Program-made: the position numbers and the translations under genes
NCBI GenBank assembly: GCA_949285605.1
Contig: CASDZI010000007.1
Location: 19,387 to 83,386 of the forward strand
Reading direction: 5' to 3'
Length of the DNA stretch: 64,000 nt
From: an uncultured Christensenella sp.
GTDB taxonomy: Bacteria > Bacillota > Clostridia > Christensenellales > DTU072
In this document: piece by piece, positions 1-14,212 of the stretch
Layout: each line of letters opens with the position of its first letter
Position numbering within the stretch: position 1 is the stretch's first letter
Notes under the pieces: model-generated
What the model saw: only the letters and a program-made list of their open reading frames with translations
The model's database searches: none
Told to the model about the DNA's origin: nothing

Positions 1-3000
1 CCGTTCGTTCAAGACAATTTCTTCAAGAGCGGTTTCGGCGAAAGCGTAACTTTCCACGTTGAAAGCGGAGCCCTGTCCGTAGTAAAGATAAGTAAGTCCG
101 CTCTTATAGAAAGCTTTTTCTCCGACGGAAACGAGTTGCACGGGGAGGAGGACGGAGACGAGTCCGGACACGCCTTCGAAGGCGCTTGCTCCGATAGAAA
201 GGCTCCCGTCGGGGTTGTCGGTGAATTCCACCGAAACCAATCCCGTACAATAGAAGGCTTTTTCACCGACCTCGGAAATATAACCGGGAAGCGATATATC
301 GACGAGAGCGTTACTGCCGTAGAAAGCGTAAGCGGGCAAAGCCAAAGCCGAGGCGTTGAGAGTTTCGGCAAAATAGACCGAATGCAGACGAGAGCAATCG
401 GAAAAGACCCCTTCGCCCAAAGATGCGAGGGAGGAGGGGAGGGTTATCTGCGTGAGATAATGGTTGGAAAGGAAGGCGTAGTCTCCGATATCCAATGCGC
501 CGTCGGAATCGGAAAAAACAATTTCGCCGACGTTACGGCAGTAAGCGAAAGCGTAATCACCGATAGAAGCGGTACGGGCGGGGAAGAAGAGACTTTGCAG
601 TCCCGAGTTGAAGGCAAAAGCGTAATCCGATATTTGCAACGAGACGCCGACGCCGTCGGCAAAAGCGACGGTTTTTAGCGAGTAGCAATCGGAAAAAGCT
701 CCCCGTCCCACGGTTTCCACACGCAAAGGAAGGGAAAGCGAAACGAGATTCGTGCCGGCAAAGGCGTATTCCCCGAAATTCAGACGGTTGGAAGAAACGG
801 AAGAATTGACTATATGGAAAGCGGACGGATCGGTTTCGATGAAAGTTTCTTCCACGGTAAGCGCGGAGAGGGAAGAATTAGCGAAAGCGTAATCGCCGAC
901 CGAACAGATCCTTCTGGACAGCACGGCGGAAGAGAGGTTGCTTTCGGCAAAGGCGTAAGCGCCTATTTTTACGAGGGTGATAACTTCGACGTTTCCCGCC
1001 GGAGCGTTATGAGAAAGGCTGAAAGAGGATATTCCGCTCCCGTAGAAAGCGTAATCGTCGATCGCCGAATAATCGGTATTAAGCACGAACTCGCCGGTTT
1101 TGCCGGCGGGATAAAGGTAGAGCGTCTTCAATCCGTCGCTTCCGTAGAAATAAATATATCCGTTTTCGCTATATAAGACGGAAGACCCGGATATATCCAG
1201 TATGGCGAGGGAGGAGCAGCCGAGGAAGGGATTCTTGACGGCTCCGACGTTTTCGGTCCCGCTTCTGAGGGCGAGAGCGGAGGGGAGAGTAACGGATACG
1301 AGGGAGGTGCAGTAAGCGAAACAGTTTTCTCCGAGAGTATCGACGATTCCGCCGCTCGTGAAGGAAATCCTCGATATTTTCGAACAGTAAGCGAAAGCCT
1401 CTTCGGCTATTTTTTGCAATCCCGTCGGTATGGTCACGTCGGTGAGGGCGGAACAGTTATAGAAAGCTCTTTTGCCGAGAGAAGTCAGGGTGGAGGGCAG
1501 CACCGACTCGTCGCCTCCGCCGTTTAACAGGGAAGTGCAGTTTTCGAATGCGCTTTCTCCAATGGACAGTATTCCGTTGCCGAGAGCGTCTTTGTTGAAA
1601 GTAACGCTTCTTATCGCAGAACAGTTATAGAATGCCCGGGCTTCTATCGAGGTAAAGTTGGAGGGGATATTCAGAGTGGTGAGAGCGGTGCACCCGTAGA
1701 AAAGTTCTTCGGGAACGGTATCGAGGGAGTTTTGGGGCAGACGCAGACGGTTCAGAACGGTACAGTTCTTGAAAGCGCCCTTACCTATATAGGTAAGCCC
1801 CGTGGACGCCTGGAAAGAGCGTACCCCGGAATTCATGAACGCATAATCCCCGACGTAGGTCACCGAGGAAGGAATGGTGGGTTCGGCGGCGATTTTCTCG
1901 CTGCCGGCAAAGGCGTAAGCGCCTATCGTCCGCAAGGACGAGGGAAGGGAGAAACTTCTCAACGAAGAGCAATCGTAAAAAGCGTAGGAACCTATTTCCG
2001 TCAGGCTCGATTGAGCGGGGAAAATAAGTTCGGACAAAGCGGAACACCCGTAGAAAGCGTAATCGCCCACCGCAACGGTGGCGCCGGTTATGGTCAGGGA
2101 AGTCAGGGAGGAACAGTCTTTGAAAGTTTCGTCGGGAACGGCTTCGAGGTTAAGCCCGGAGTAAGAGAACTTCGAGAGCGAAACGCAATCGGCAAAAACC
2201 CTTTCTCCGAGGCTTTGCACGGAGTCGGGCAGTACGAAAGAACGCAGTCCGCTTTCTGCGAAAGCCTCCGCTCCTATGTCGATAAGAGAGGAATTTCCGA
2301 AAGAAACGTTTTCGAGAGCGGAACAGCCGTAGAAGGCACGTGTTTCGATACTTTCGACAGAGTCGGGTAGGCTTACCGAAACTATGTTTTTATTGCCGAG
2401 GAAAGCTCCTTCGCTTACGGATATCGTTTCGTCGGAAACGGTGAAATCACCGCCTTTGGCAACGGGCAGGTAAACGAAACGGGTTTTATCCGCCGAATAC
2501 AGAGCGCCGTCGACGGAGACGTAGGAAGGATGATTGACCGACGATAAAATATCCGTTAAGGACGAAAGTGCGAAAGAGCGGTAATCGAAGGTATAATTCT
2601 CGGAATCGGGCAAAATGAAAGAGGTGGCGGCGGTGTAAGCCAACACGTTTTTACCCAGTTCGAGCAAGGAAGAGCCTGCGGCGAAAACAATTTCCGAAAG
2701 TACGGAACCCGAGAAAGCCACGTCGCAACCGAAATCCGTTACGGGCAAAACGTCCTCCCCTTCTTCGGCGGGACGGACTGCGGCGAAAGCGTAATCGCCC
2801 ACCGTTTCCAGCGAGGAAGGAAGAGAAATTTTCGTCAGCGAGGACAACCCGGCAAAAGCGCCTTTTCCTACCGAGAGCAGACCTTCTTCTATTTTAATTT
2901 CCGTCAGGGAGGGTATATCAAAGAAAGCGTAGTCGCCTATATGTTTGACACTGCTCGGAATGACCAACGTGGAAAGGACTTCGGAAGAGAAGATCTTTCC

Positions 3001-3852
3001 TGCGGCAGGATCGGCGGAAGCGCCGCCCACTGCGGTGACGGGGTAACCGCCGAGAGTTTCGGGAATTATTATCAAAGTCTGGTTTTTACCTATGGAAGTG
3101 AGCCCGGTTATTTTAGCTTCTCCGTCGGAAACGGTATAGCTTAAGTATCTCGACATATCGGAATTGTCGAGGAAACGGGCGTAAAGCATAAGATTCGAGT
3201 CGGGAATGGCCGTGGGGAGGGTAAGACAGGGCTCGGAAAAAGCGGTGTCGTAATACCAGCCGTAGAAATAAGAATTTTCTTTCTCGGGTTCGTCGGGCGA
3301 AAGAATGGAGTCTCCCGGCAACCCGGAATAAAAAGCGTATTCTTCTCCGTCCACGACGTATGTGACGGAATAAGTGGCGAGAAAATACTGAGCGAAGACG
3401 GTTACCGGAGCGGTGACGTTGGTCAGACCGTCGGTGAGCCATCTGCCGTCAAAACCGGCTTTTGCCGGGACCTCGGGCATTTCGGAAACGGGAAGATCGC
3501 TCCCGTAAGAAACGTATTCATAGGAAATAACGCCGTCTGCGTTGAAAGTTACGGTGACCAGTTGCGGAGTCCATTTGGCGTAGAAGGTGCAGTCTTCTTC
3601 GGGAATGACTTTAATGTCCACTTTGGAAGAGAGGGCGCTGTCGTAATACCAGCCGTCGAAAACGTAACCGTTACGGACGGGAGTGGGGAGGTCGAGACTT
3701 TCCGAGGAAACGGGTACTTTGACAGAGGACAGGCTTTCGCCGCCGTTGGTTTCGAAAGTAATGGTGATCCGTTCGGGAAAACAGCCCGTAAGGACGACTG
3801 TAGCCGCCATAATCAGTATTATCAGAGCAAGCAATAACTTTTTACCGTTCAC
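1..3852 (-). CDS. InlB-B-repeat / BspA-type leucine-rich-repeat surface lipoprotein (N-terminus complete, C-terminus runs off left edge)
   Basis: Hand translation of the minus strand from GTG at 3852-3850 (GGGAGG RBS at 3865-3860, 7-nt spacer) gives MNGKKLLLALIILIMAATVVLTGC, which ends in a lipobox. Three GY.F.GW modules follow (YVFDGWYYD, GFDGRW, YFYGWYYD), then repeated IGDYAF..L..I.LPSS LRR units. Codons at 60-1 read NVESYAFAETALEEIVLNER in the same frame. No listed minus-strand ORF uses this frame, consistent with one open frame with no stop in the window, which explains its absence from the ORF track. Continuity of the middle was not translated codon by codon. Confidence 0.85.
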   Translation of the reverse strand, partial: MNGKKLLLALIILIMAATVVLTGCFPERITITFETNGGESLSSVKVPVSSESLDLPTPVRNGYVFDGWYYDSALSSKVDIKVIPEEDCTFYAKWTPQLVTVTFNADGVISYEYVSYGSDLPVSEMPEVPAKAGFDGRWLTDGLTNVTAPVTVFAQYFLATYSVTYVVDGEEYAFYSGLPGDSILSPDEPEKENSYFYGWYYDTAFSEPCLTLPTAIPDSNLMLYARFLDNSDMSRYLSYTVSDGEAKITGLTSIGKNQTLIIIPETLGGYPVTAVGGASADPAAGKIFSSEVLSTLVIPSSVKHIGDYAFFDIPSLTEIKIEEGLLSVGKGAFAGLSSLTKISLPSSLETVGDYAFAAVRPAEEGEDVLPVTDFGCDVAFSGSVLSEIVFAAGSSLLELGKNVLAYTAATSFILPDSENYTFDYRSFALSSLTDILSSVNHPSYVSVDGALYSADKTRFVYLPVAKGGDFTVSDETISVSEGAFLGNKNIVSVSLPDSVESIETRAFYGCSALENVSFGNSSLIDIGAEAFAESGLRSFVLPDSVQSLGERVFADCVSLSKFSYSGLNLEAVPDETFKDCSSLTSLTITGATVAVGDYAFYGCSALSELIFPAQSSLTEIGSYAFYDCSSLRSFSLPSSLRTIGAYAFAGSEKIAAEPTIPSSVTYVGDYAFMNSGVRSFQASTGLTYIGKGAFKNCTVLNRLRLPQNSLDTVPEELFYGCTALTTLNIPSNFTSIEARAFYNCSAIRSVTFNKDALGNGILSIGESAFENCTSLLNGGGDESVLPSTLTSLGKRAFYNCSALTDVTIPTGLQKIAEEAFAYCSKISRISFTSGGIVDTLGENCFAYCTSLVSVTLPSALALRSGTENVGAVKNPFLGCSSLAILDISGSSVLYSENGYIYFYGSDGLKTLYLYPAGKTGEFVLNTDYSAIDDYAFYGSGISSFSLSHNAPAGNVEVITLVKIGAYAFAESNLSSAVLSRRICSVGDYAFANSSLSALTVEETFIETDPSAFHIVNSSVSSNRLNFGEYAFAGTNLVSLSLPLRVETVGRGAFSDCYSLKTVAFADGVGVSLQISDYAFAFNSGLQSLFFPARTASIGDYAFAYCRNVGEIVFSDSDGALDIGDYAFLSNHYLTQITLPSSLASLGEGVFSDCSRLHSVYFAETLNASALALPAYAFYGSNALVDISLPGYISEVGEKAFYCTGLVSVEFTDNPDGSLSIGASAFEGVSGLVSVLLPVQLVSVGEKAFYKSGLTYLYYGQGSAFNVESYAFAETALEEIVLNER

Positions 3853-4100
3853 TCGAAAACCTCCCGTACACGCACACGCGTAAAAAATACAATTATATAT
3901 TACTCTTAATAAGTCCTTTTGTCAATAGCGGTTTGAGCAAGGCAAAGCGGTAAATCTTCCCTGCCTAAAAAGGATTTTCGCATACGGGAGGAGTATTCCT
4001 GCGGTTGCTTTCGGGACGGAAAAAGGATATAATGAAAAGGACGGCAGACAGGTCTTAAAAAGAGTGCCGTACCCGAATACAGGAGTTAAGGAGGTCAGCC

Positions 4101-5222
4101 ATGGCGACGAGAAAATCTTCTTCAAAGAAAACCAACGTCAGGGAAATAGTCCTGATATTTATAATTTTGGTACTCATAGCCGCACTTTTGGCATCCCTTT
4201 TTGCGGCAGACGAGATTAAAAGCATTTTAGGGCTGAGCGGGAACGCACAAAACGAAAGCGGAGACGACGGGGTCGTATATACCTCGGTCTTAAGCGGTAA
4301 AGCCAATGTGGTTCTTCCGTCGGAATTCGACGGAGAAAACTGCGTGGAGGTACATTTTATCGACATAGGGCAGGGAGACGCCATAGCGGTGATGCTCCCC
4401 GACGGCAAAACTTTTCTGATAGACGCCGGAAGCGGTACGTCTGTGAGCACGGCGACCAGGACGGAATATATGAATTATCTTTCCGACGTGCTGGCAATCG
4501 ACGTAGTGGACTATCTTCTCGTCACTCATCCCGACAGCGACCACGTCAATCTTGCTTCGGGGGTTCTGGAAGAATACGACGTCAAAAACATTTATTATAA
4601 CGAATACTATACCGAAGGGAGCAAAACGTACAAGACGTTTATGGACGACGCCGACGCCGAAGCCGAAACGGGAGCCACGCTTTACGAAATAGGCGCCGAA
4701 GAAGAAAAATACACCGTGACCGGCGACGGATACGAATTCGAGATATTCGCTCCCGGGAATACCGGGTTCGAAGGAGCGGAAAGTGTCAAGAACAGTATGT
4801 CGATGATGTGCGTGTTAACTTACGGCGGCAGGACGGTACTGTTTACAGGCGACGCGGAAGTGGAGACGGAGGAGTGGTTTATTTCTCTTCCGGAAGTAGC
4901 CGACCTCGACGTGGACGTACTTAAAGTGGGACACCACGGCTCGCAAAGTTGCACTTCTACCGCATTCATGGAAAAGATCAAACCCGAATACGCTTTGATA
5001 AGCTGCGACAACGGCTCGGCGTACGGTCATCCTCACGCCGAAACGATGAATACGCTTTTTGCTTTCGGGACGGTCACATACCGAACCAACCGTCACGGCA
5101 ACGTGGTTTTATATCTTGACGACGACGGGGATTTCGGTTTTCTTCCCGAGAACGACGTTCCCGTGGAAAACAACAGACTGGGTATAAATCCGCTTACCAT
5201 AACTTTGCAGAAGGCGGCGTAA
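4101..5222 (+). CDS. Membrane-anchored MBL-fold metallo-hydrolase (ComEC C-terminal domain-like)
   Basis: 373-aa ORF with AAGGAGG RBS at 4087-4093. N-terminal TM helix (IVLIFIILVLIAALLASLF). Metallo-beta-lactamase motifs THPDSDHV, FTGDAE, LKVGHHGS and GHPH. Confidence 0.8.
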   Translation: MATRKSSSKKTNVREIVLIFIILVLIAALLASLFAADEIKSILGLSGNAQNESGDDGVVYTSVLSGKANVVLPSEFDGENCVEVHFIDIGQGDAIAVMLPDGKTFLIDAGSGTSVSTATRTEYMNYLSDVLAIDVVDYLLVTHPDSDHVNLASGVLEEYDVKNIYYNEYYTEGSKTYKTFMDDADAEAETGATLYEIGAEEEKYTVTGDGYEFEIFAPGNTGFEGAESVKNSMSMMCVLTYGGRTVLFTGDAEVETEEWFISLPEVADLDVDVLKVGHHGSQSCTSTAFMEKIKPEYALISCDNGSAYGHPHAETMNTLFAFGTVTYRTNRHGNVVLYLDDDGDFGFLPENDVPVENNRLGINPLTITLQKAA

Positions 5223-5230
5223 AAAAGACG

Positions 5231-6661
5231 ATGAACGAAATAAAACCCAAGCTGAAACAAGACGATATAATCGAAGCGGAGATCCACGACAACGGTATGG
5301 AAGGAGAAGGCATAGCTTCCTACGGCGACTATACCGTTTTCGTACCGTTTTGTCTGGCAGGGGAAAAGGTAAAGGCGAAAGTGACCTACGTCAAAAAGAA
5401 CATGGTTTTTGCCGACCTTTTAAGCGTGGAAAGAGAGTCCGAAGGCAGAGTCAAACCGCCCTGCAACCGTTTCGGGAAATGCGGCGGTTGCGACCTTATG
5501 CACGCCGAATATTCTCTTCAGTTGGAGATGAAGAGGAAAAACTTGCAGCGGCTTCTGAAAAAGAACGCAGGGACGGAAATCGAATGTCCCCCCGTGGTGC
5601 CGAGTAGCTCGCCTTACGCTTACCGCAACAAGATATCCTTACCTTTCGGCACGGTGACGGAGTACAAAGACGGAAAGAAAACCACCAGGACGGTACTTGG
5701 GTTTTACAGGGAAAAGAGCCACAAGGTAGTGGCGATAACCAAGTGTTTCCTCCACGGAGATTGGGCGGAAAAGGCGATAAAAGTTTTTCTTGCGTACGCC
5801 GAAAAATACCGCCTGGCTTCTTACGACGAGGAGACGGGAAAAGGACAGCTCAAGCACCTCGTGGTGAGGTATCTGGACGGACGGGCGTGCATAGTGCTGG
5901 TGACGGACGGAAGCCGTCTTAACGGGACGGAGTGGCTGGTGAAAGAACTGGACAAAGTTTTTCCGCATTACTCTTTTTATCTCAGTCCCAAGCCCGAAAA
6001 AACCAACGTAATTATGGGGAAAACGGTCGTTCCGATAAAGACCGAACCTTTCGAAACCGAAGTTATCGGAGTAAAAATTTCGATAAATCCGTATTCTTTT
6101 TTACAGCTGAATTCGGAAATAAGGGATAAAATTTATTTACGTATAATAGAAGAAATCACGGAAGAAAATAAAAAACCGACGGTGATAGACGCCTATGCGG
6201 GAGTAGGGATACTCGGAGCGGCGCTGGCAAAGAGAGGAGCGAAAGTCTACAATATAGAGATCGTCCCCGAAGCGACCGCCGACGGCGAAAAGATAGCCGC
6301 CCGAAACGGGCTCGCCGACAAAATAACCAACCTCAACGGCGACGCGGCAAAACTGCTTCCCGATTTAATAAGCGAGCTTAAGGGTACCGAAAACGAGAAT
6401 TCGGGTAACCTATATTTAATTTTAGACCCGCCGAGGAAAGGTTGCGACGAAAAGGTGCTGAGCGAAGCGGACAAGTCCGACGTCGATAAGATATATTACA
6501 TAAGCTGTAATCCCGCCACTCTCACCCGAGACCTTGCCCGTCTGCACAACTACGAAGCGGTCTACGTCCGTCCCTACGATATGTTCCCTTGCACCAGTCA
6601 CATGGAAACGCTGGTCAGACTGGAAAAAAGGCAAGCGAAGGACGGAGGCTTTTCCGAATAA
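5231..6661 (+). CDS. rlmD: 23S rRNA (uracil-C5)-methyltransferase, RumA/RlmD family (TRAM + Fe-S + SAM MTase)
   Basis: 476-aa ORF. N-terminal TRAM-like beta domain, Cys cluster CNRFGKCGGCDLMH, SAM-binding DAYAGVGILG and C-terminal YISCNPATLTRDL with catalytic Cys. Confidence 0.8.
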   Translation: MNEIKPKLKQDDIIEAEIHDNGMEGEGIASYGDYTVFVPFCLAGEKVKAKVTYVKKNMVFADLLSVERESEGRVKPPCNRFGKCGGCDLMHAEYSLQLEMKRKNLQRLLKKNAGTEIECPPVVPSSSPYAYRNKISLPFGTVTEYKDGKKTTRTVLGFYREKSHKVVAITKCFLHGDWAEKAIKVFLAYAEKYRLASYDEETGKGQLKHLVVRYLDGRACIVLVTDGSRLNGTEWLVKELDKVFPHYSFYLSPKPEKTNVIMGKTVVPIKTEPFETEVIGVKISINPYSFLQLNSEIRDKIYLRIIEEITEENKKPTVIDAYAGVGILGAALAKRGAKVYNIEIVPEATADGEKIAARNGLADKITNLNGDAAKLLPDLISELKGTENENSGNLYLILDPPRKGCDEKVLSEADKSDVDKIYYISCNPATLTRDLARLHNYEAVYVRPYDMFPCTSHMETLVRLEKRQAKDGGFSE

Positions 6662-6691
6662 AAATTTATTTTGAGGCAATTAAGGTGTATT

Positions 6692-7339
6692 ATGAAATAT
6701 GAAACAATAAACATAAACGAATGGAAAAGGGGAAAACTTTTTTCGCATTATATCGATAATTTACGCAACGTCTTAAGTCTTACCGCAGAGATAGACGTAA
6801 CGCTATTCGTGCGATTCGTCAAAGAGAAGGGATTGAAGTTTTATCCATCCTTTATGTGGGCGGTTTCCAAGATATTCAATTCCCGGGAGGAATTCCGTTA
6901 CGGTTGGGATAAAGAAGGCAATCTGATCCGTTGGGAGCAAATTTCGCCGTATTATGCAGATTTCCATAAAGACGACGAAATGTTCACTTTGCTTTATACC
7001 GAGTATGCCGAGGACTTATTGACTTTCCACGGCAATTTTTTGAAAGACAGGGAAAAATACGGCGGTTTGAGAGGGTTCGACTTTACCGGAGTGCCGACAA
7101 ACGTATTCAACGTGTCCTGTCTGCCGTGGCTAAAATATAAAAGTTTCGACATTCACGTTTTCGACGAGGGGAAATATCTCGCCCCCGTAGTTACCTGGGG
7201 AAAGTACGAGGAAAAAGACGGAAGGCTGACAATGCCCTTAAGCGTCAATATCCATCACGCCGTTTGCGACGGATTTCATCTTTGCAGATTTTTTAACGAA
7301 TTGCAGACGTTTATCGATTCGGGAAAAATAATACCTTAA
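6692..7339 (+). CDS. cat: Type-A chloramphenicol O-acetyltransferase
   Basis: The body aligns by eye along its whole length to classical CAT, from MKYETININEWKRGKLF to the catalytic signature IHHAVCDGFH. I prefer ATG 6692 (AAGGTG RBS upstream) over the track's TTG at 6671. Confidence 0.9.
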   Translation: MKYETININEWKRGKLFSHYIDNLRNVLSLTAEIDVTLFVRFVKEKGLKFYPSFMWAVSKIFNSREEFRYGWDKEGNLIRWEQISPYYADFHKDDEMFTLLYTEYAEDLLTFHGNFLKDREKYGGLRGFDFTGVPTNVFNVSCLPWLKYKSFDIHVFDEGKYLAPVVTWGKYEEKDGRLTMPLSVNIHHAVCDGFHLCRFFNELQTFIDSGKIIP

Positions 7340-7441
7340 AAATTTTCGCCAGAAAACTTCGGGATAAGAAGCTATAGGTAAATTCTTAGCTTTCGGAAAG
7401 TGACTTAGTTACGGAAAAATAATTTCCTTTCGGATAATCTG

Positions 7442-7471
7442 TAGGTAAACAAATTCAAGGAGGTTTACCTA
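7442..7471 (+). promoter_or_regulatory. RBS-proximal hairpin in leader of the QueD-like gene
   Basis: taggtaaac (7442-7450) pairs perfectly with gtttaccta (7463-7471). The loop contains AAGGAG and the ATG at 7473 follows directly. An 8/9 copy of the 5' arm (taggtaaa) sits at 7375-7382. Confidence 0.3.
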
Positions 7472-7472
7472 T

Positions 7473-8039
7473 ATGAGAAGTATTACTACTTTAGATATTC
7501 AGTACGCACACCGTTTTTACGGATTCAGAGGAGAGGCGCAATATTTGCACGGACATACCGGAGTTTTGACTTTGGAAGTGGAAGACAGTATCGAACCCGG
7601 AGTGAATATGGTTTTCCCCTGTAACGAAATTCAGAAAACGGCGTGGGCTGTTTTGAAAAATTTCGATCACGCATTGGTTTTGAGAGAAGACGACCCGTTA
7701 CTTCCCGCAATTTTGGACGTTTACGAGAAGCAAGGCATCAAGAACGGCGCTCCGAATAACGTTATGAAAGGCGAAGCCTTCAAAACCGAACTTTGCACTG
7801 CGTACCCCGATTGCCGCCTGGTAGTGACCAAGGAAACCATGACCGTGGAAGGTATGATAAAAATGGTCTACGAGCTGCTCAAAGACAAGCTCAACATCGC
7901 AAAAATCACCTTTACTAGCGGAGTCAATGCGGCAAGTTGCGAATTCGAAACCAAAAACGACATCGCCCGTTGTCCCTTGTGCGGCATTGCGCTCAACGAT
8001 AAAGGAGTATGTCCGAAATGCGGCTACAAAAAGCAATAA
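7473..8039 (+). CDS. 6-pyruvoyl-tetrahydropterin synthase / QueD-like protein with C-terminal zinc ribbon
   Basis: 188-aa ORF. PTPS-like YAHRF..(11)..LHGHTGVLTLEV and VFPCNEIQK....NFDHALVL. The C-terminus carries CPLCG..(9)..CPKCG. Confidence 0.55.
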   Translation: MRSITTLDIQYAHRFYGFRGEAQYLHGHTGVLTLEVEDSIEPGVNMVFPCNEIQKTAWAVLKNFDHALVLREDDPLLPAILDVYEKQGIKNGAPNNVMKGEAFKTELCTAYPDCRLVVTKETMTVEGMIKMVYELLKDKLNIAKITFTSGVNAASCEFETKNDIARCPLCGIALNDKGVCPKCGYKKQ

Positions 8040-8066
8040 AACCGTCCCGTCGAAATACCGAACCGT

Positions 8067-8100
8067 AAAAAAACGCCCTTCCTGCGAGAAGGGCGTTTTG
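8067..8100. terminator. Bidirectional intrinsic terminator between convergent genes
   Basis: aaaaa-acgcccttc-ctgcga-gaagggcgt-tttt. It has a GC-rich 9-bp stem with an A-run upstream and a T-run downstream. Confidence 0.7.
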
Positions 8101-8130
8101 ATTTCGGGAATATCGAAACAGGGTACGTCT

Positions 8131-8493
8131 TTACGCTTTTTCGATGGTGGCGCCGAAAGGCATAAGGGAGAGTTTAGCGAATTTGAAGCACTGTTTTCCG
8201 AAGGGAATGCCGATTATGGTGATGCACCAGAGAAGAGCGGCGAAGAAGAAACCGATGCAGAGAGCCAGTCCGCCGAATATGATCCATATCACGTTCAGTA
8301 CGGCGTGTTTGGAAAAATCGGCTTTGACTTCTTTCCCGAAGGGCCAGAAAATTATCCCCGCCAGTTTGAAACACTGTTTCCCGAAGGGAATGCCGATTAT
8401 CGTAATGCACCAGAACAGTCCTAATATTATGTAGGAAAGTCCCAACCACAGTCCCGTCAGCAGAAACCACAAAATGTTGCCTAAAGTTTTCAT
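8131..8493 (-). CDS. yccF: YccF (DUF307) inner-membrane protein
   Basis: 120-aa ORF with strong AGGAGGA RBS. Two copies of the WCITIIGIPFGKQCFK signature separated by TM segments. Confidence 0.85.
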   Translation of the reverse strand: MKTLGNILWFLLTGLWLGLSYIILGLFWCITIIGIPFGKQCFKLAGIIFWPFGKEVKADFSKHAVLNVIWIIFGGLALCIGFFFAALLWCITIIGIPFGKQCFKFAKLSLMPFGATIEKA

Positions 8494-8629
8494 TGTTTTT
8501 CCTCCTTTTTTGGCTATATGCCGTTTTTATGGTAACCCGAACCCGACAAAATCGCAATAGGAAAAAACAAAATAGAAGTATTCTACTTAAAATTGACCGT
8601 GAAAAGGGCGAAAGAGAAAAAATTTCCGT

Positions 8630-9358: not shown

Positions 9359-9524
9359 AAATATCCTCTTGCAAAATTATTTTCCGATAAATTATAACAC
9401 ATTTTAGAAGCAAAATCAAAATGAAGTATGGTAATTTGCTTTCTGAAGTTTACACCAATGCGAGAGTTAATAATGAAACAACCGTATTGTCAATAAGACA
9501 AAATAATGATAAAATCATAAAAAG

Positions 9525-10082
9525 ATGGACAAGCGTGTTTTTAGATGTAATTATCTTATAAAAAAGATTCAAAAAGGGAACGAAAAGGCGTTAGACGAGT
9601 TATTTAAGGAATACGGAGCGCTTTTTCTCAACATGGCAAAAAAATATCTTTTCGATAAAAGCTATGCGGAAGATTTGTTGAGCGAAATGTTTTTGGAATT
9701 GTTAAAAAAGGAAGCACGGAGTTTTGACGAAAATAAAAATGGACTTAATTGGATTTTTACCATTATCAGAAGAAAGGCTTATCGTTTAAACGAACGAAAT
9801 AACTGTTCTTTTATTTTCGACGGGACAGAATACGGAAAGCATTTATCGGAGTATTTTGCTTATGAAGATAATCCTTTTTCCGAAAATTCTTTAGATAAAA
9901 CGCTTTTGAAGAAAGCGTTGGATACATTGACAGAAGAAGAAAACAAAATAATATATTATAAATATTGGGAAGGTTTGACGGTAAGGGAAATTGCTGGCGA
10001 AATGAATATACCTCGCTCTACCATTCAATATAAAATTAAAGAAATTTTATCAAAATTGAAAGAGTATTGGAACGGGAGATAG
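9525..10082 (+). CDS. ECF-type sigma-70 family RNA polymerase sigma factor
   Basis: 185-aa ORF. Region 2-like segment (LDELFKEYGALFLNMAKKYL..AEDLLSEMFLELL) and region 4 HTH (LTEEENKIIYYKYWEGLTVREIAGEMNIPRSTIQYKI). Confidence 0.8.
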   Translation: MDKRVFRCNYLIKKIQKGNEKALDELFKEYGALFLNMAKKYLFDKSYAEDLLSEMFLELLKKEARSFDENKNGLNWIFTIIRRKAYRLNERNNCSFIFDGTEYGKHLSEYFAYEDNPFSENSLDKTLLKKALDTLTEEENKIIYYKYWEGLTVREIAGEMNIPRSTIQYKIKEILSKLKEYWNGR

Positions 10083-10087
10083 TGAAA

Positions 10088-10780
10088 ATGAGGAAAAAAG
10101 ATATAGAAAGCAAGATAGTAGGTTCTTTGGAAGACGTTTCCCCTTTGAATTCGCAAATTCTGAATGCGGCTAAAGAAGAAATGAAAGAGTGCAAAAAGAA
10201 ATGCGGGAAAAGAAACGTTTTCAAATATGCGTTTGTTTGTTTTGTGTCCGCAATTTTGTGCATAGCTATAGTTTTGACCGTAAAATACGTACAAAAGGAT
10301 AATTCAGGTGCATTGCCGGACGGATATTCGGAATTAAAATATGTTTCTATGTCCGACTATTTAACGGAACACGGAATTGCTCTTACCGCTTACGATCGTT
10401 TGTTTGATGACGGGCTGGGTACAGAATCTGGCAATTCGGGAAGCGACCATTACGTTTCGACGGGGTGCAATGTAGTTTTCTATAACGGGGAAGAAGTTTG
10501 CATAACAGAAAATTACGATTTTTACGTTACCGATAAGATCACGGTTTCTATTTTGTTGTCCGATAAAGGCAGTGCGGAAAAAGATTTGTTTGAAGAATAT
10601 ATTGCTTTACAGGAAAATATGACCGTCATGGGAACAGAAATAGAGTACTCTTTCGACGAAAAAAAATCAGAAGGAAAAGCCAAATTTGTTTATAAAGAAT
10701 ATAAAATTTATATGAATTTCGTGACTTCCTCTAAAAGTTCTATGATAAGTCACTTGCAAACTTTTATCATTTTACAATAA
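10088..10780 (+). CDS. Single-pass membrane protein, candidate anti-sigma factor
   Basis: It lies immediately after, and overlaps, the sigma gene. ATG 10088 has a GGGAGA RBS; the track's TTG 10067 is an alternative start. Short cytoplasmic N-terminus, one TM helix (FVCFVSAILCIAIVLTV), then an extracytoplasmic domain. The function is inferred from position only. Confidence 0.45.
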   Translation: MRKKDIESKIVGSLEDVSPLNSQILNAAKEEMKECKKKCGKRNVFKYAFVCFVSAILCIAIVLTVKYVQKDNSGALPDGYSELKYVSMSDYLTEHGIALTAYDRLFDDGLGTESGNSGSDHYVSTGCNVVFYNGEEVCITENYDFYVTDKITVSILLSDKGSAEKDLFEEYIALQENMTVMGTEIEYSFDEKKSEGKAKFVYKEYKIYMNFVTSSKSSMISHLQTFIILQ

Positions 10781-10855
10781 TTTTTTGTTTTTTCTTTGGA
10801 CATAACCGATATTCTCGCCCTAATTATTTATAAAAGAATATCGGAGGTGTCTTAA

Positions 10856-11476
10856 ATGAAAAGCTTATTAAAATTTAGTAAATTATTTTTCATTCTTATT
10901 TCGGTATTTTTGTTATTTATTTTCTCTTCGTGTGAAAAATCTATCACTGAAACAGATAATTCGGGAACAGAAAACACGATTTATAATTATATGGATTTTA
11001 AATTTGTTTCTAATGAAATATTATCGTTGGAATACGCTTACGACCAAAATATAGTTTCGCAAAACGATATAAGAAGTATAGGTTTTTATCATAACGGAGG
11101 GAAAGAGTGGAAAGGCGAAATAGGCGAAGAGGTAAAAATAGAAGATTTTATCGTTACCGATTATCGTCCGATTAACAAGGATCCGTCTGTTCTTTCCGCC
11201 GAACAAAAACAAAAAATCAAAGAACTTTACGCACAATATCTTAACGATGCTATTAAATACTTTTATGAAAATCAAGGATTAAACATTAAAATCGATTTAA
11301 TCAAAGCCGATGACGTTAAAATAATCGATTATTACGGAGTTTATAACGATTATGCGGCGGTTTTAATCAAACATAACGATATGGGTTTACAGAAAATCGA
11401 AACGCCCGTTATCGCAGGGGTTGCGTTCTATTATCCGAACAGCGAAGAAACGATATTGCTGATCGGCAAAATATAA
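10856..11476 (+). CDS. Lipoprotein of unknown function
   Basis: 206-aa ORF with GGAGG RBS. Signal peptide ending in the lipobox FSSC (LLFIFSSCEKS). Confidence 0.6.
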   Translation: MKSLLKFSKLFFILISVFLLFIFSSCEKSITETDNSGTENTIYNYMDFKFVSNEILSLEYAYDQNIVSQNDIRSIGFYHNGGKEWKGEIGEEVKIEDFIVTDYRPINKDPSVLSAEQKQKIKELYAQYLNDAIKYFYENQGLNIKIDLIKADDVKIIDYYGVYNDYAAVLIKHNDMGLQKIETPVIAGVAFYYPNSEETILLIGKI

Positions 11477-11502
11477 AAAAATTATTGATTTTGGAGGCGA
11501 CT

Positions 11503-14070
11503 ATGAAAAACAAAGTATTAAGCATCAACAAAACATTATTAGTTGTAGTTTTTTTTATGATACTTTTGATAGGATTTTTAACAAATAGTTCAACTAATGC
11601 ATATGCAATAAATAATGGCACTGAATTATTTGAAGAAAAAATATATTGTAATACAACAATTGATGAAGATTTTGATGAGAGTTGTGTTTTGGTTGTTATA
11701 GATAAATATCATAGTGAAGTTAACAAAGTATATGATAAAAATTTTTTTGGGGATGTCTCAATAAGGGAAGTTGAAGATTTAACGAGTTTTAACAGTAATA
11801 TAGATAACTTGGATTATTTAAATCTGCAAGAATTTAGGCAGATATTAAAATTGGAACTTGAAGAACCTTCCAAACAAAATGTTTTAGATACTATCCATTC
11901 TATCGAGAATATAGATGGAGTGTTAAGTGCCTCGCCAAGTCATTATTTAAGGGATTGTACTTTACCTGGATGTGTGACTGGAGAAAATTATACAAATTTA
12001 TGGGGTTTACATGGAGACTATGGTATTAATGCTGAAGAAGCTTGGGAAATAACGACAGGGAATAGTGGTGTAAGAGTTGGAATAATAGATACAGGTGTTG
12101 ATAATCATAATGATTTATCAGGGAATTTAGTTACAGGGTGGAATGTGCTTGTTGATAATGCGACTCAAACAGATAATGTTGGACACGGGACACATATAGC
12201 AGGGACAATAGGCGCAAATGGGGAAAATATTAATGGTATTGTTGGCGTCTCTCCAAATGTATCATTGGTACCAATACAAGCGGCGATTGGTTTGCCAGTG
12301 CCTATTCTTAATATGGTCATACCTATTCTTAATGAAGAAACCTGCGTAGCAGGAATTGAATGGGCAATAGAAAATAATATAGATATAATTAACTTTAGTA
12401 TAGGTGGTTATTCTGAAACTTTAGCGTTAAAAACAGCTATTTCTAATTACACAGGATTGTTTGTTTGTGCGGCAGGTAATGGAATAAAAAATGATTTAGG
12501 AGAATATGAGGGAGTTAATACCGATGTTACGCCACATTATCCATCATGTTATAATCATGGGGAAGAATTTAGTGATAGAGTTATTTCGGTTGGCGCCATG
12601 AGTGAAAATGGTGTGCGTACATATTTTTCTAACTATGGCGCAACCTCTGTCGATATTTTTGCTCCAGGTGAAAACATTTTAAGTACAGTGCCTAACAGTA
12701 TATCAAATAGCGGATATGCGTATTTTAACGGTACTTCTATGGCAACTCCTCATGTTGTAGGAACAGCGGCTTTACTATATTCACAATTCTTAAGAAATTC
12801 TCATAATTTAACTAGGAGCGAAATAGCAGTATTAATTAAATCTATAATCATAAAAAATGCTACTATAGATGTTGAATTTTCAGGGAAATGTGTTGCCGGT
12901 GGACGCCTTAATGCTTATAAAGCACTTTCAAATAACTCATATAAACAAGTGATGACAGGGTTTGGTTATTATTCAACTTTAAGACATTGGCATGGGAAAG
13001 TAGATCTTCTTATAAATAATATTTCTTCTTTTTATACTAATTCAGATAATAGACTAGTTGTTACTAAAGTAACTGATTTAGTATTTTCTGTTGGGACTAA
13101 AAGTGCATATAATACTTGGCATGAAATTAATGGAACAGTTACTTTTGAATTAAAAAACAGTGCGGGGGAAATTATACAAATAAATAATAATAATACATTT
13201 ACAAGTACTATAAGAGTGGGATTAATTAGCAATACATCATACACTAATCGTGGTTTTACAATCAATTCTGCAAATTTGCCAAACGATACTTATACATTAT
13301 TATTAAATTGTTATACAAGTAGAGACGGGCAAGGGCAAACTAGCTCAGCATCTTTTACATTTATTATAAATAAATCTTCATGCATTGCAGCGGGCAGTCT
13401 AATAACATTATCCGACGGGAGTCAGGTCGCAGTAGAAAATCTTGTTGGGAATGAAGAACTACTTGTGTGGAATATGCAAACGGGAAGCTTTGATGTAGCA
13501 CCAATATTTTTTATTGATAATGACCCTTTTAGCACATACGAAGTTATAGAATTAACTTTTTCAGATAATTCTAAAGTACAGATTATAGATGAACATGCTT
13601 TTTTTAATGCTACAATTGGTAAATATGTATTTTTAACAAACAATGCAGATCAATATATTGGACATTATTTCAATAAATACAATAACATAGGTGGTCAAAA
13701 CGACTGGAATACGGTGCAACTAGTAAACGTAGAAATTTTTACTACTCAAACTTCGGCTTGGAGTCCTGTAACTTATGGACATTTATGTTATTATGTTAAT
13801 GGTATGCTATCCTTACCTGGTGGAATAGAAATATTAACAAATATTTTCGATGTGGATACCGAATTAATGAAATATGACTTAATCTCATTTAATCAAGATA
13901 TTAATGAATATGGATTATTTAGTTATGAAGAATTTTGCTTAATTTGGGATGTGCCCGAGGTCTTTTTTGAAGCTTTTAACGGGAAATATCTTAAAGTGGC
14001 GTTAGGTAAAGAATTGATTTCGATAGAGGATGTAACTTTATTAATAGAAAGATACCAAAATTTATTTTAA
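11503..14070 (+). CDS. Secreted S8 subtilisin-family serine peptidase with C-terminal Hint (Hedgehog/intein-type) domain
   Basis: ATG 11503 follows a GGAGG RBS. Signal peptide MKNKVLSINKTLLVVVFFMILLIGFLTNSSTNAYA. I9-like propeptide. Catalytic Asp (VGIIDTGVD), His (HGTHIAGTIG), oxyanion Asn (CAAGNG) and Ser (NGTSMATPHVVGTAALL). A beta-rich middle region follows, then the Hint-like CIAAGSLITLSDGSQVAVENL ... QIIDEHAFF ... GHLCYYVNGMLS. Confidence 0.85.
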   Translation: MKNKVLSINKTLLVVVFFMILLIGFLTNSSTNAYAINNGTELFEEKIYCNTTIDEDFDESCVLVVIDKYHSEVNKVYDKNFFGDVSIREVEDLTSFNSNIDNLDYLNLQEFRQILKLELEEPSKQNVLDTIHSIENIDGVLSASPSHYLRDCTLPGCVTGENYTNLWGLHGDYGINAEEAWEITTGNSGVRVGIIDTGVDNHNDLSGNLVTGWNVLVDNATQTDNVGHGTHIAGTIGANGENINGIVGVSPNVSLVPIQAAIGLPVPILNMVIPILNEETCVAGIEWAIENNIDIINFSIGGYSETLALKTAISNYTGLFVCAAGNGIKNDLGEYEGVNTDVTPHYPSCYNHGEEFSDRVISVGAMSENGVRTYFSNYGATSVDIFAPGENILSTVPNSISNSGYAYFNGTSMATPHVVGTAALLYSQFLRNSHNLTRSEIAVLIKSIIIKNATIDVEFSGKCVAGGRLNAYKALSNNSYKQVMTGFGYYSTLRHWHGKVDLLINNISSFYTNSDNRLVVTKVTDLVFSVGTKSAYNTWHEINGTVTFELKNSAGEIIQINNNNTFTSTIRVGLISNTSYTNRGFTINSANLPNDTYTLLLNCYTSRDGQGQTSSASFTFIINKSSCIAAGSLITLSDGSQVAVENLVGNEELLVWNMQTGSFDVAPIFFIDNDPFSTYEVIELTFSDNSKVQIIDEHAFFNATIGKYVFLTNNADQYIGHYFNKYNNIGGQNDWNTVQLVNVEIFTTQTSAWSPVTYGHLCYYVNGMLSLPGGIEILTNIFDVDTELMKYDLISFNQDINEYGLFSYEEFCLIWDVPEVFFEAFNGKYLKVALGKELISIEDVTLLIERYQNLF

Positions 14071-14090
14071 AATGAATTACCACTTATTGT

Positions 14091-14126
14091 AATTAGAATG
14101 CGCCTTTTTTAAGGCGCATTCTAATT
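14091..14126. terminator. Perfect 14-bp-stem hairpin at right end of the AT-rich cassette (putative terminator)
   Basis: aattagaatgcgcc (14091-14104) pairs with ggcgcattctaatt (14113-14126), with loop ttttttaa. There is no clear U-tract after the stem, so terminator function is uncertain. Confidence 0.5.
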
Positions 14127-14212
14127 AGAGGCATTGATAAAGATACTTTCAAAAACTATTTTTTTGTATTATCATAATAATAATAATAATTCGATTTAAG
14201 AGGAGACGGAAT

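Follow-up and report, generated by a model that had tools for sequence, protein, structure and literature searches.

An AT-rich cassette of an uncultured Christensenella as one probably imported, partly decaying instance of a widespread Hog-like C-terminal module

Positions 9359-14212 of the window analysed here (the whole stretch of 64 kb taken from contig CASDZI010000007.1 of an uncultured Christensenella sp.) hold an AT-rich cassette of four genes, which encode an extracytoplasmic function (ECF) sigma factor, a single-pass membrane protein, a lipoprotein and a secreted subtilase. This cassette is one probably imported, partly decaying instance of a widespread and uncurated C-terminal module, which we call HintC and which resembles the Hog domain of Hedgehog proteins. 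The conserved unit is a lipoprotein together with any secreted passenger that ends in HintC, the sigma/anti-sigma pair being an optional upstream regulator, and HintC behaves as a lineage-specific C-terminal processing or anchoring device for which the subtilase is one cargo among others. An earlier note on this DNA had described a self-contained module of envelope-signalling and effector genes; what it observed is real and its reading was largely sound, but the object, HintC, is larger than the cassette that it described. Overall, we lean towards a laterally acquired, low-G+C operon module, under the control of its sigma factor and circulating among uncultured gut Clostridia, in which HintC autoprocesses the passenger to which it is attached.

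The last ~230 residues are the best conserved part of the subtilase among its full-length homologues, and structure prediction indicates that they very probably hold a Hint fold. An AlphaFold2 (AF2) model built from 121 sequences, which superseded an earlier model from 16 sequences with a mean predicted local distance difference test score (pLDDT) of 68, reached a pLDDT of 94.2 and a predicted TM-score (pTM) of 0.89, and it joins a beta-rich core and five helices in one compact unit. The Hint core would comprise residues 627-772 (13381..13818, + strand), with a predicted scissile bond at Ser626|Cys627, and is followed by a conserved helical tail of ~85 aa with five predicted helices (residues 773-855; 13819..14067, + strand). 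In a Foldseek comparison with the PDB, the top 50 matches were all of the Hint fold (inteins, Hedgehog HhC or BIL domains), with TM-scores (TMt) of 0.70-0.83 among the closest: mini-inteins reached up to 0.83, Hedgehog 1at0 scored 0.75 and the BIL domain 2lwy of Clostridium thermocellum 0.74, and the matches also include the Tetrahymena BIL2 domain; the BIL entries matched are 2lwy and 6y75. The alignments extend over ~150 columns, and no PDB match covers the tail. Searches by sequence were far less sensitive. Pfam and NCBIfam show no Hint domain in the window protein and only a weak match to intein-bearing DnaB, and a sequence-profile search of the PDB with the module gave nothing significant; the Pfam Hedgehog-type Hint model matches 11 of 16 family members, weakly (best E 0.002), and is the only Pfam signal in the family. 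The Hint domain that the earlier note proposed is thus unseen by Pfam and NCBIfam in this protein, but emerges in the predicted fold.

The residues that are retained point in the same direction. A profile alignment to Drosophila Hedgehog 258-471 (reference sequence checked against PDB 6td6 and 1at0) is ungapped from Cys1 to His72 and places C627, D672 and H698 opposite Hedgehog C258, D303 (D46) and H329. The roles of these Hedgehog residues, including that of D46 as the general base for transfer, have been described (PMC9163320). Among 377 distinct HintC domains (per-position denominators 360-376), Cys1 is found in 359 of 360, Asp46 in 367 of 375, Glu71 in 374 of 375 and His72 in 375 of 375, while the Cys of an LCYYV motif that recalls the Hedgehog SCYA is kept in 364 of 376. 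In the tail, K836 and Y851 are invariant and D799, Y803 and G804 are at least 98% conserved (375 domains). Given the fold, the N-terminal Cys nucleophile and the block-B His, the core is referable to the Hint superfamily; a C-terminal Hint followed by an extra conserved region on a secreted protein is, further, the arrangement that characterises Hog. The module ends within 5 residues of the protein C-terminus in 381 of 404 domains, the penultimate residue of its core is Val, and there is no C-terminal His-Asn followed by a nucleophile. An intein was considered and rejected: the terminal module leaves no extein to ligate, and the core ends V-N-G-M-L with no nucleophile after it. Autocleavage by HintC is probable. 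In 20 of the 404 domains a further 27-58 residues follow the module (loci L019, L021, L023, L024, L027, L033, L043, L077 and L091); in the protein P0041 these form a His/Asn/Gly-rich stretch that ends in a run of Arg.

HintC is in no way confined to subtilases. In a scan of one genome per species 201 stretches encode the module, and the best 80 of the 201, nearly all from uncultured Clostridia (Christensenella, Christensenellaceae, Borkfalkiaceae and similar), were analysed as loci. In all 80 the module stands at the end of a large protein (300-1950 aa) with a signal peptide, and an S8 domain is present in only 22. Of 44 passengers scanned with Pfam, 24 carry Flg_new, 22 BspA-type leucine-rich repeats (LRR; LRR_5), 12 LRR_8 and 10 S8, and a few bear alpha/beta hydrolases, C10 or trypsin-like peptidases or DUF6973. 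These are passenger types that other Firmicutes anchor by LPXTG, SLH or choline-binding modules, and related subtilases of the same clade bear LRR, Flg_new, FG-GAP or choline-binding repeats in place of HintC. An exhaustive search with a hidden Markov model returned 1,713 cluster representatives at E<=1e-30 (clusters at 50% identity). Despite this abundance the databases name HintC proteins only 'S8 family peptidase', 'leucine-rich repeat protein' or 'hypothetical', neither NCBIfam 2026 nor Pfam 2025 holds a model for the module, and no description of it, or of a link between Hint and ECF sigma factors, was found in the literature searched. Two loci carry neighbouring HintC genes (L099, 7032-9698 and 10348-12753; L040, 9569-10717 and 12299-14551), whose HintC-coding 3' ends are 98% and 90% identical in nucleotides, respectively, against 67% and 43% for the preceding 700 nt; unlinked HintC paralogues are only 66-69% identical. 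This pattern points to a recent duplication, or to recombination by which different passengers come to be joined to one module.

HintC genes usually have a lipoprotein gene close by. Under the rule that the upstream gene ends no more than 400 nt (usually 3-46 nt) before the next gene on the same strand, a lipoprotein gene directly precedes 39 of 66 HintC genes (59%) as compared with 63 of 710 other genes in the same loci (8.9%), an odds ratio of 14.8 (p = 6e-21), and 19 of these upstream lipoproteins belong to the family of the window lipoprotein, members of which lie directly upstream of HintC genes in many species. The window lipoprotein itself (10856..11476, + strand; 206 aa) belongs to an uncharacterised family with no Pfam or PDB relative. 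That it is a lipoprotein, as the earlier note held, can be read directly from the lipobox IFSSC (FIFSSC at residues 21-26), the Cys of which is the only invariant column in 20 homologues; the alignment of these 20 sequences further yields the motifs FYTLxEAYDxGWLTxEDLxSIAYY, YYGTYNG and IGGVxFxY. The regulatory genes are less constant. Nine of the 80 loci have, upstream and co-oriented, an ECF sigma gene together with a homologue of the window membrane protein, and three more (L028, L040, L083) have the pair, or the membrane protein alone, otherwise arranged. In the nine, the sigma gene comes first, in some followed by a gene for a secreted protein; next are the membrane protein and between one and four lipoproteins, and the HintC protein is last. 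The cassette had been conceived as a module of sigma factor and S8 protease; these genes do co-occur, but S8 is one passenger of many and the sigma pair is optional.

Within the window, all four genes lie on the + strand (open reading frames 9525-10082, 10067/10088-10780, 10856-11476 and 11485/11503-14070), co-directional as had been reported. The sigma gene (9525..10082) encodes 185 aa assigned to the ECF type by Pfam (Sigma70_r2, r4, r4_2 and Sigma70_ECF) and by TIGR02937 (80.7 bits against a cut-off of 42.9), and the presence of regions 2 and 4 only, in a protein of about 20 kDa, is that of ECF (group 4) factors. In the NCBIfam/Pfam scan none of the curated sigma subfamily models reaches its cut-off for this protein, which is 57-62% identical to the sigma factors of orthologous cassettes. 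A sigma-A-type promoter candidate for the sigma and anti-sigma genes (9487..9515, + strand; TTGTCA, 17 nt, TG-extended TAAAAT) is the best-scoring site of a promoter scan, its 10/12 with TG being a consensus match only, and sigma-A-like TTGACA/TATAAT pairs also stand upstream of the sigma genes in related operons. The second gene (10088..10780, + strand) encodes 230 aa, or 237 aa if counted from TTG 10067, with ~45 cytoplasmic residues, one transmembrane helix (residues ~45-66) and ~165 extracytoplasmic residues. The overlap of the sigma gene with this reading frame that the earlier note reported holds only from TTG 10067, and not for the start conserved in 13 homologues, ATG 10088, which is 5 nt past the sigma stop. 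Its pairing of sigma factor and single-pass membrane protein has fared better: an iterated profile joins the membrane protein to single-pass proteins after ECF sigma genes in 12 HintC loci, and the partner recurs in 4 of 4 contexts retrieved with sigma homologues, so that the two form a conserved couple. As a single-pass membrane protein that adjoins the sigma gene and is conserved along with it, the product is a candidate anti-sigma factor, on the grounds of position, topology and co-conservation; the HxxxCxxC motif is absent from its residues 1-45. In other sigma classes a secreted protein of 265-400 aa is encoded between the sigma factor and the membrane protein (L016 3848-4720, L090 2807-4009, and also L020, L039, L045, L057 and L087), with weak Peptidase_C39-like similarity in 2 of the 7 (E 4e-4 and 1e-2, below cut-off). 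It may serve to process the anti-sigma factor proteolytically. The window's sigma class has no such intervening gene.

Between the membrane-protein and lipoprotein genes lies a candidate ECF-type promoter (10796..10825, + strand) that consists of TTGGACAT, N16 and CTAATT and has a predicted start near 10832. The pattern TTTGGACA.A...TA.TT is invariant at the same position in all six orthologous cassettes, whose consensus there is TTTGGACA(A/T)A, ~14 nt, (C/T)TA(A/G)TT, and the conserved element is unique in the 64-kb window (one match, 0.16 expected). The class-A motif is matched 17 times in 2.75 Mb of strand; the six loci that have this sigma/anti-sigma family account for 11 of the matches, every one of them on the strand of the operon. 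In a second sigma class the corresponding position is taken by GGACAA-N16-GTTATA, which also precedes other genes of the same loci (nine occurrences in L016, L028, L039 and L083, all on the + strand and intergenic), and L057 has a textbook TGTAAC-N17-CGTCTA there. The earlier note had pointed to an ECF promoter of the AAC...CGT type upstream of 10856; a conserved element that is not of the sigma-A type does stand there, but not in that textbook form. These elements may well be the cognate ECF promoters, with the lipoprotein and the HintC protein as regulon, and a direction of control from the sigma factor to these target genes is, in our estimation, fairly probable.

The same intergenic region has a second layer. 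Its RNA is predicted to form a hairpin (10788..10862, + strand) in which the promoter spacer (10797-10815) base-pairs with the lipoprotein gene's Shine-Dalgarno region (10835-10855); the fold has -23.6 kcal/mol and a z of -5.1, none of 200 shuffles being equally stable, and was also detected as an inverted repeat. RNA that begins at the predicted ECF start, 10832, lacks the 5' arm and is unstructured, so that translation would depend on where the transcript starts; the hairpin at the ribosome-binding site (RBS) may be a device to this end. Orthologues fold alike with different but complementary arms (L017 2018-2082; L096 6290-6362; L097 9247-9322; L098 9250-9327; L099 6366-6433), at z -0.1 to -6.6 in single-sequence folds with covariation unscored, and RNAalifold predicted no structure on a MAFFT alignment of the six intergenic regions, in which the 3' arms are misaligned. 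In operons that belong to other sigma classes, the membrane-protein gene is followed by an intrinsic terminator in place of the hairpin. At the probable end of the window operon is a perfect hairpin with a UUUU loop (14091..14128, + strand; stems 14091-14107 and 14112-14128; -27.1 kcal/mol, z -7.3), which has no U tail and was not called by a terminator scan. It is the hairpin noticed earlier, with a stem of 17 bp and not 14 bp.

The passenger of this particular cassette is a secreted pre-pro-subtilase of 855 aa (11503..14070, + strand), with a signal peptide (11503-11607; AYA|I as read from the sequence), an S8 domain (12082-12894) and the C-terminal HintC module; the secreted S8-Hint protein of the earlier note is thus upheld by profile, signal peptide and predicted fold. 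Peptidase_S8 (PF00082) matches residues 194-464 with 156 bits against a cut-off of 21.8, and D196, H228, N326 and S412, by which a subtilase is known, are invariant in 19 homologues. Deseasin MCP-01 and subtilisins come nearest among PDB structures (E 6e-36 to 1e-28), identity to full-length homologues is 39-63%, and the Shine-Dalgarno GGAGG of the gene lies 26 nt past the lipoprotein stop. A mycosin or subtilase of a type VII secretion system (T7SS) was rejected, with TIGR03921 at 135.3 bits against 278.75 and T7SS genes absent among the neighbours; PADLOC gave generic subtilase matches only, and hence no defence-system signature.

Within the species the locus is found on many metagenome contigs with the same flanks, hexapeptide acetyltransferase and FAD/geranylgeranyl-reductase-like genes, and every strain examined has the cassette at this locus with sigma factor, membrane protein and lipoprotein intact. 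What the species can dispense with is the protease, whose gene has been lost several times over from an otherwise persistent cassette. The gene is intact in the window and in L001-3, L007, L009 and L010; split into 127 + 716 aa (codon ~128) in L006 and L008; split into 489 + 284 aa by a stop at codon 490 in L100; reduced by an internal deletion of ~1.55 kb (window 11714-13260) in L101; and cleanly absent from L011 and L012. In L011 the sequence past the lipoprotein stop aligns with the window's post-protease spacer, which means that the indel is the protease gene alone, and this protease-less allele has only a degenerate version of the terminal hairpin. The DNA left of the cassette (window 1-8600) is strain-variable in a comparison of L001, L006, L008, L011 and L101: an ArsR/HMA/P-type ATPase/Rrf2 block is common to the window and L001, TetR/Macro/SIR2 is found in L006 and L008, L011 carries, 3 kb left of the cassette, a large serine recombinase beside a chloramphenicol-acetyltransferase-like gene, and L101 is without CAT and PTPS genes. 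In the window a gene of the chloramphenicol-acetyltransferase family (Pfam CAT; 6671-7339) stands in a stretch of moderately low G+C (0.41-0.44), 2 kb to the left of the cassette. On the right, the flank in L011 has an identity of only 87%, as against 98% for the cassette.

The composition of the interval first drew attention to it, and the sharp drop seen by hand count is borne out by a sliding-window profile, which is low in the cassette only. In 500-nt windows G+C falls from 0.48-0.52 to 0.27-0.38 between ~9250 and ~14250 and recovers immediately, and this is the sole part of the 64 kb with 1-kb windows below 0.38. G+C at third codon positions (GC3) is 0.34 for the sigma gene, 0.38 for the membrane protein, 0.32 for the lipoprotein and 0.19 for the protease, versus 0.48-0.62 for eight flanking genes, and the four intergenic pieces of the cassette have 0.26-0.31; the drop is one at synonymous sites and not an amino-acid effect. 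Orthologous cassettes, found from sigma homologues of ~60% identity and by contig look-ups, bear on the same point. All 4 sigma-homologue contexts have sigma factor, membrane protein and lipoprotein and 3 of the 4 also S8-HintC genes, several of them in tandem in L099. Together with L017, at least five other species carry the cassette (L017, L096, L097, L098, L099), each between different neighbours, and all four genes co-occur in L017, L096, L097 and L099, which answers the earlier call for a co-occurrence check in the affirmative. The named metagenome-assembled genomes among the matches are mostly Christensenella or Christensenellaceae. All five cassettes have a G+C of 0.35-0.385, against 0.31-0.49 for the flanks in their hosts; in the low-G+C hosts (L096, L099) the cassette shows no drop relative to the flanks, but in hosts of ~0.45-0.49 it does. 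The GC3 deviation and the constant cassette G+C in unrelated loci argue for lateral transfer into a genome of ~0.5 G+C, and a lateral origin, as the earlier note supposed, is therefore likely. Deviant composition and differing locations in different genomes are features of a genomic island; the mobility features of such islands are missing at the cassette, there being no integrase or transposase among the neighbouring genes, no tRNA in the window and no direct repeats that bound the cassette, just as had been noted from the letters alone. The window holds no Rfam family either. The only mobility genes near any copy are the serine recombinase of L011 and a tyrosine-recombinase (phage-integrase family) gene in L096 (73-975), 4 kb upstream of the cassette.

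A mechanism may be put together from these elements. The sigma-A-type promoter would drive the ECF sigma factor and its single-pass anti-sigma partner. Once freed by the anti-sigma factor, the sigma factor would direct RNA polymerase to start at TTGGACAT-N16-CTAATT, as comparative conservation suggests, on a transcript that would cover the lipoprotein and the pre-pro-subtilase. In RNA that reads through from the upstream promoter, the RBS of the lipoprotein would be locked in the hairpin; in ECF-started RNA it would be free. The subtilase, by its signal peptide, would be exported by Sec. Its C-terminal 230 residues, a Hedgehog/Hog-like module by predicted fold and conservation (Hint core with Cys1, Asp46 and His72, and tail), would then turn the Ser626-Cys627 peptide bond into a thioester, to be resolved either by water, with release of the passenger, or by an envelope acceptor chosen by the tail, with covalent anchoring; in either event a Hint-tail fragment would be left behind.

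Readings diverge on how the thioester is resolved. Covalent transfer to an envelope acceptor rather than hydrolysis is, in our judgement, a doubtful outcome, and we advance only tentatively the idea that HintC anchors proteins by its own catalysis and independently of sortase, as a bacterial counterpart of Hog by which varied passengers are covalently fixed to the surface; under it a lipid, a glycopolymer or the co-encoded lipoprotein might serve as acceptor. HintC might instead be a self-removing pro-domain that is hydrolysed to yield a soluble passenger and no adduct, the lipoprotein then being a chaperone, dock or inhibitor, a possibility that we would not rate as probable either. Simple hydrolysis is a known outcome for some Hint domains, namely in BIL domains and, in vitro, in Hedgehog, and same-clade subtilases make do with the ordinary binding modules already listed. 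Moreover, the lipoprotein family has no conserved nucleophile besides the lipobox Cys in 20 homologues, and the lipoprotein is consequently disfavoured as covalent acceptor. Release alone does not sit easily, however, with the near-universal retention of Asp46, the residue that serves Hedgehog as general base for transfer (PMC9163320), nor with a tail of 85 residues that has invariant positions and is better conserved than the passengers, a costly appendage for mere cleavage, nor with passengers of types that are normally cell-anchored and here show no other anchor motif. Several further points count against the picture that we favour. The sequences are all metagenome assemblies and the analysis is computational throughout. 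The Hedgehog match obtained with hhalign is weak (E 0.007, probability 5%), position 69 of the TxxH motif is Ile or Val and never Thr in 375 of 375 domains, and residue -1 is variable, Glu and Asn included. The anti-sigma candidate has no Pfam or NCBIfam match at E<=0.01 and no anti-sigma domain (ASD, zf-HC2 or RsgI_N). The proposed promoter comes from comparison without a prior consensus, while GAAC-N15-18-CGT has none of its 48 window matches inside the cassette, the whole-window count being that of chance. The borders of the island are not marked by any mobility gene, tRNA or repeat, and no site without the cassette was detected, every contig of the window species carrying it. A decaying protease gene, finally, may contribute little to fitness.

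The remaining alternatives concern origin, direction of control and the fate of the tail. Low G+C could reflect not foreign descent but an ancestral cassette shaped by amino-acid usage or by the expression-linked codon bias of secreted proteins. In 80 genomes the G+C of HintC genes is indeed on average 4.5 points lower than that of their flanks, neither mobility genes nor repeats were detected, and the cassette occupies one locus throughout the window species; yet the deviation is strongest at third codon positions and extends to the cytoplasmic sigma gene and to intergenic DNA, the contrast with the flanks vanishes in the low-G+C hosts L096 and L099 and not in those of ~0.45-0.49, and the flanking genes differ in every species, all of which makes this explanation improbable. 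A reversal of the regulatory logic, in which the secreted protease acts as a site-1 protease that cleaves the anti-sigma factor and so controls the sigma factor, was raised in the earlier note and draws something from the C39-like similarity in 2 of the 7 intervening proteins of other sigma classes (below cut-off, as said). It has otherwise found no support and is very unlikely: protease-less strains and species keep sigma factor, anti-sigma factor and lipoprotein intact, the same sigma/anti-sigma family precedes HintC proteins with LRR or Flg_new passengers rather than proteases, and the conserved promoter-like element is upstream of the lipoprotein and protease genes. Most improbable of all, Hint might free the C-terminal 85 residues as a toxin. 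PT-HINT domains do precede C-terminal toxins in the polymorphic toxins of Gram-positive bacteria, but in HintC the polarity is the opposite, a tail near-invariant over 375 domains behind varying N-terminal passengers; downstream there is no immunity-like gene, only the hairpin and then the conserved FAD-reductase flank; and the PT-HINT Pfam (PF07591) is unmatched even at E 10. A polymorphic toxin was rejected on these counts.

Among known systems HintC would work most like the eukaryotic Hog domain, with passenger, Hint and recognition region in that order. Hedgehog and Hog proteins reportedly combine a Hint core with a sterol- or adduct-recognition region (Hall 1997; Burglin 2008). Like them, HintC proteins have a secreted, variable N-terminal passenger followed by a conserved C-terminal Hint and an extra helical region; Cys1, Asp46 and His72 have the same spacing, the core has a CY(Y/A)V motif close to its end, and the fold match to 1at0 and the weak Pfam Hedgehog-type Hint matches agree with this. 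Unlike them, HintC is bacterial, has Ile or Val for Thr69, is linked to a lipoprotein gene and sometimes to an ECF sigma gene, and has a longer tail (~85 aa, five helices) with no detectable similarity to the sterol-recognition region; since sterols are not expected in HintC hosts, any acceptor must differ from that of Hedgehog. BIL domains are found in secreted or variable proteins and cleave rather than splice; typically they are internal, with other domains on either side, and in many of them a C-terminal Asn is retained for cleavage at that end. The BIL domains (types A/B, Amitai 2003) share with HintC a bacterial Hint fold, as the match to 2lwy attests, whereas HintC is always terminal and has a conserved tail and a Hedgehog-type Asp46, the comparison being one by fold. 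C-terminal Hint-like domains have also been described in secreted proteobacterial and myxobacterial proteins (by Burglin 2008 and by Dassa and Pietrokovski; PMC2362128). There too the domain is C-terminal in bacterial signal-peptide proteins, but, compared by description, they come from other phyla and share their N-terminal region whereas HintC passengers are diverse, and no tail, lipoprotein or sigma linkage is described. PT-HINT (Zhang et al. 2012) likewise is a Hint domain that processes an exported multidomain protein of Gram-positive bacteria; HintC differs in its reversed polarity (conserved C-terminus, variable N-terminus), in having no immunity gene and in not matching PF07591.

Other likenesses are functional or regulatory. 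LPXTG/sortase, PEP-CTERM/exosortase and the C-terminal domain (CTD) of the type IX secretion system (T9SS) are analogous in function: they share with HintC a place at the very C-terminus of surface proteins, which for HintC are those with LRR, Flg_new or protease passengers, and they are removed in maturation, as is predicted for HintC; unlike these signals, HintC would be self-catalytic, is of 230 residues and has no transpeptidase gene in its operon. For the regulatory half the nearest parallel is SigI-RsgI of Clostridium thermocellum, a sigma/anti-sigma operon that switches on surface or secreted proteins. In both, on our reading of the cassette, a sigma factor and a single-pass anti-sigma factor with an extracytoplasmic sensor domain adjoin the target genes, and a group-specific promoter precedes the targets. 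The window sigma factor, unlike SigI, falls below the curated subfamily cut-offs, its anti-sigma candidate has no recognisable anti-sigma or sensor domain, and its gene is apparently driven by a sigma-A-type promoter and is not autoregulated.

Hint domains are familiar as inteins, as BIL domains and as the autoprocessing domain of Hedgehog, and to our knowledge the Hog-like layout has hitherto been treated as a eukaryotic invention of unknown origin. Here it appears as a large bacterial family of more than 1,700 clusters at 50% identity, placed where Gram-positive surface proteins normally carry their sorting signal. If transfer to an envelope acceptor is true, HintC would represent a new way to attach proteins to bacterial surfaces; kinship with Hedgehog processing would then be plausible as well, and biotechnology would gain a compact tag that cleaves itself or ligates. 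For the window species, the AT-rich island finds its explanation as a probably imported cassette of regulatory and effector genes, the effector of which is being lost in part of the population. More broadly, the carriers of HintC are abundant uncultured gut Clostridia, and their adhesin-like and protease passengers give the module relevance to the interaction of these bacteria with host and mucus.

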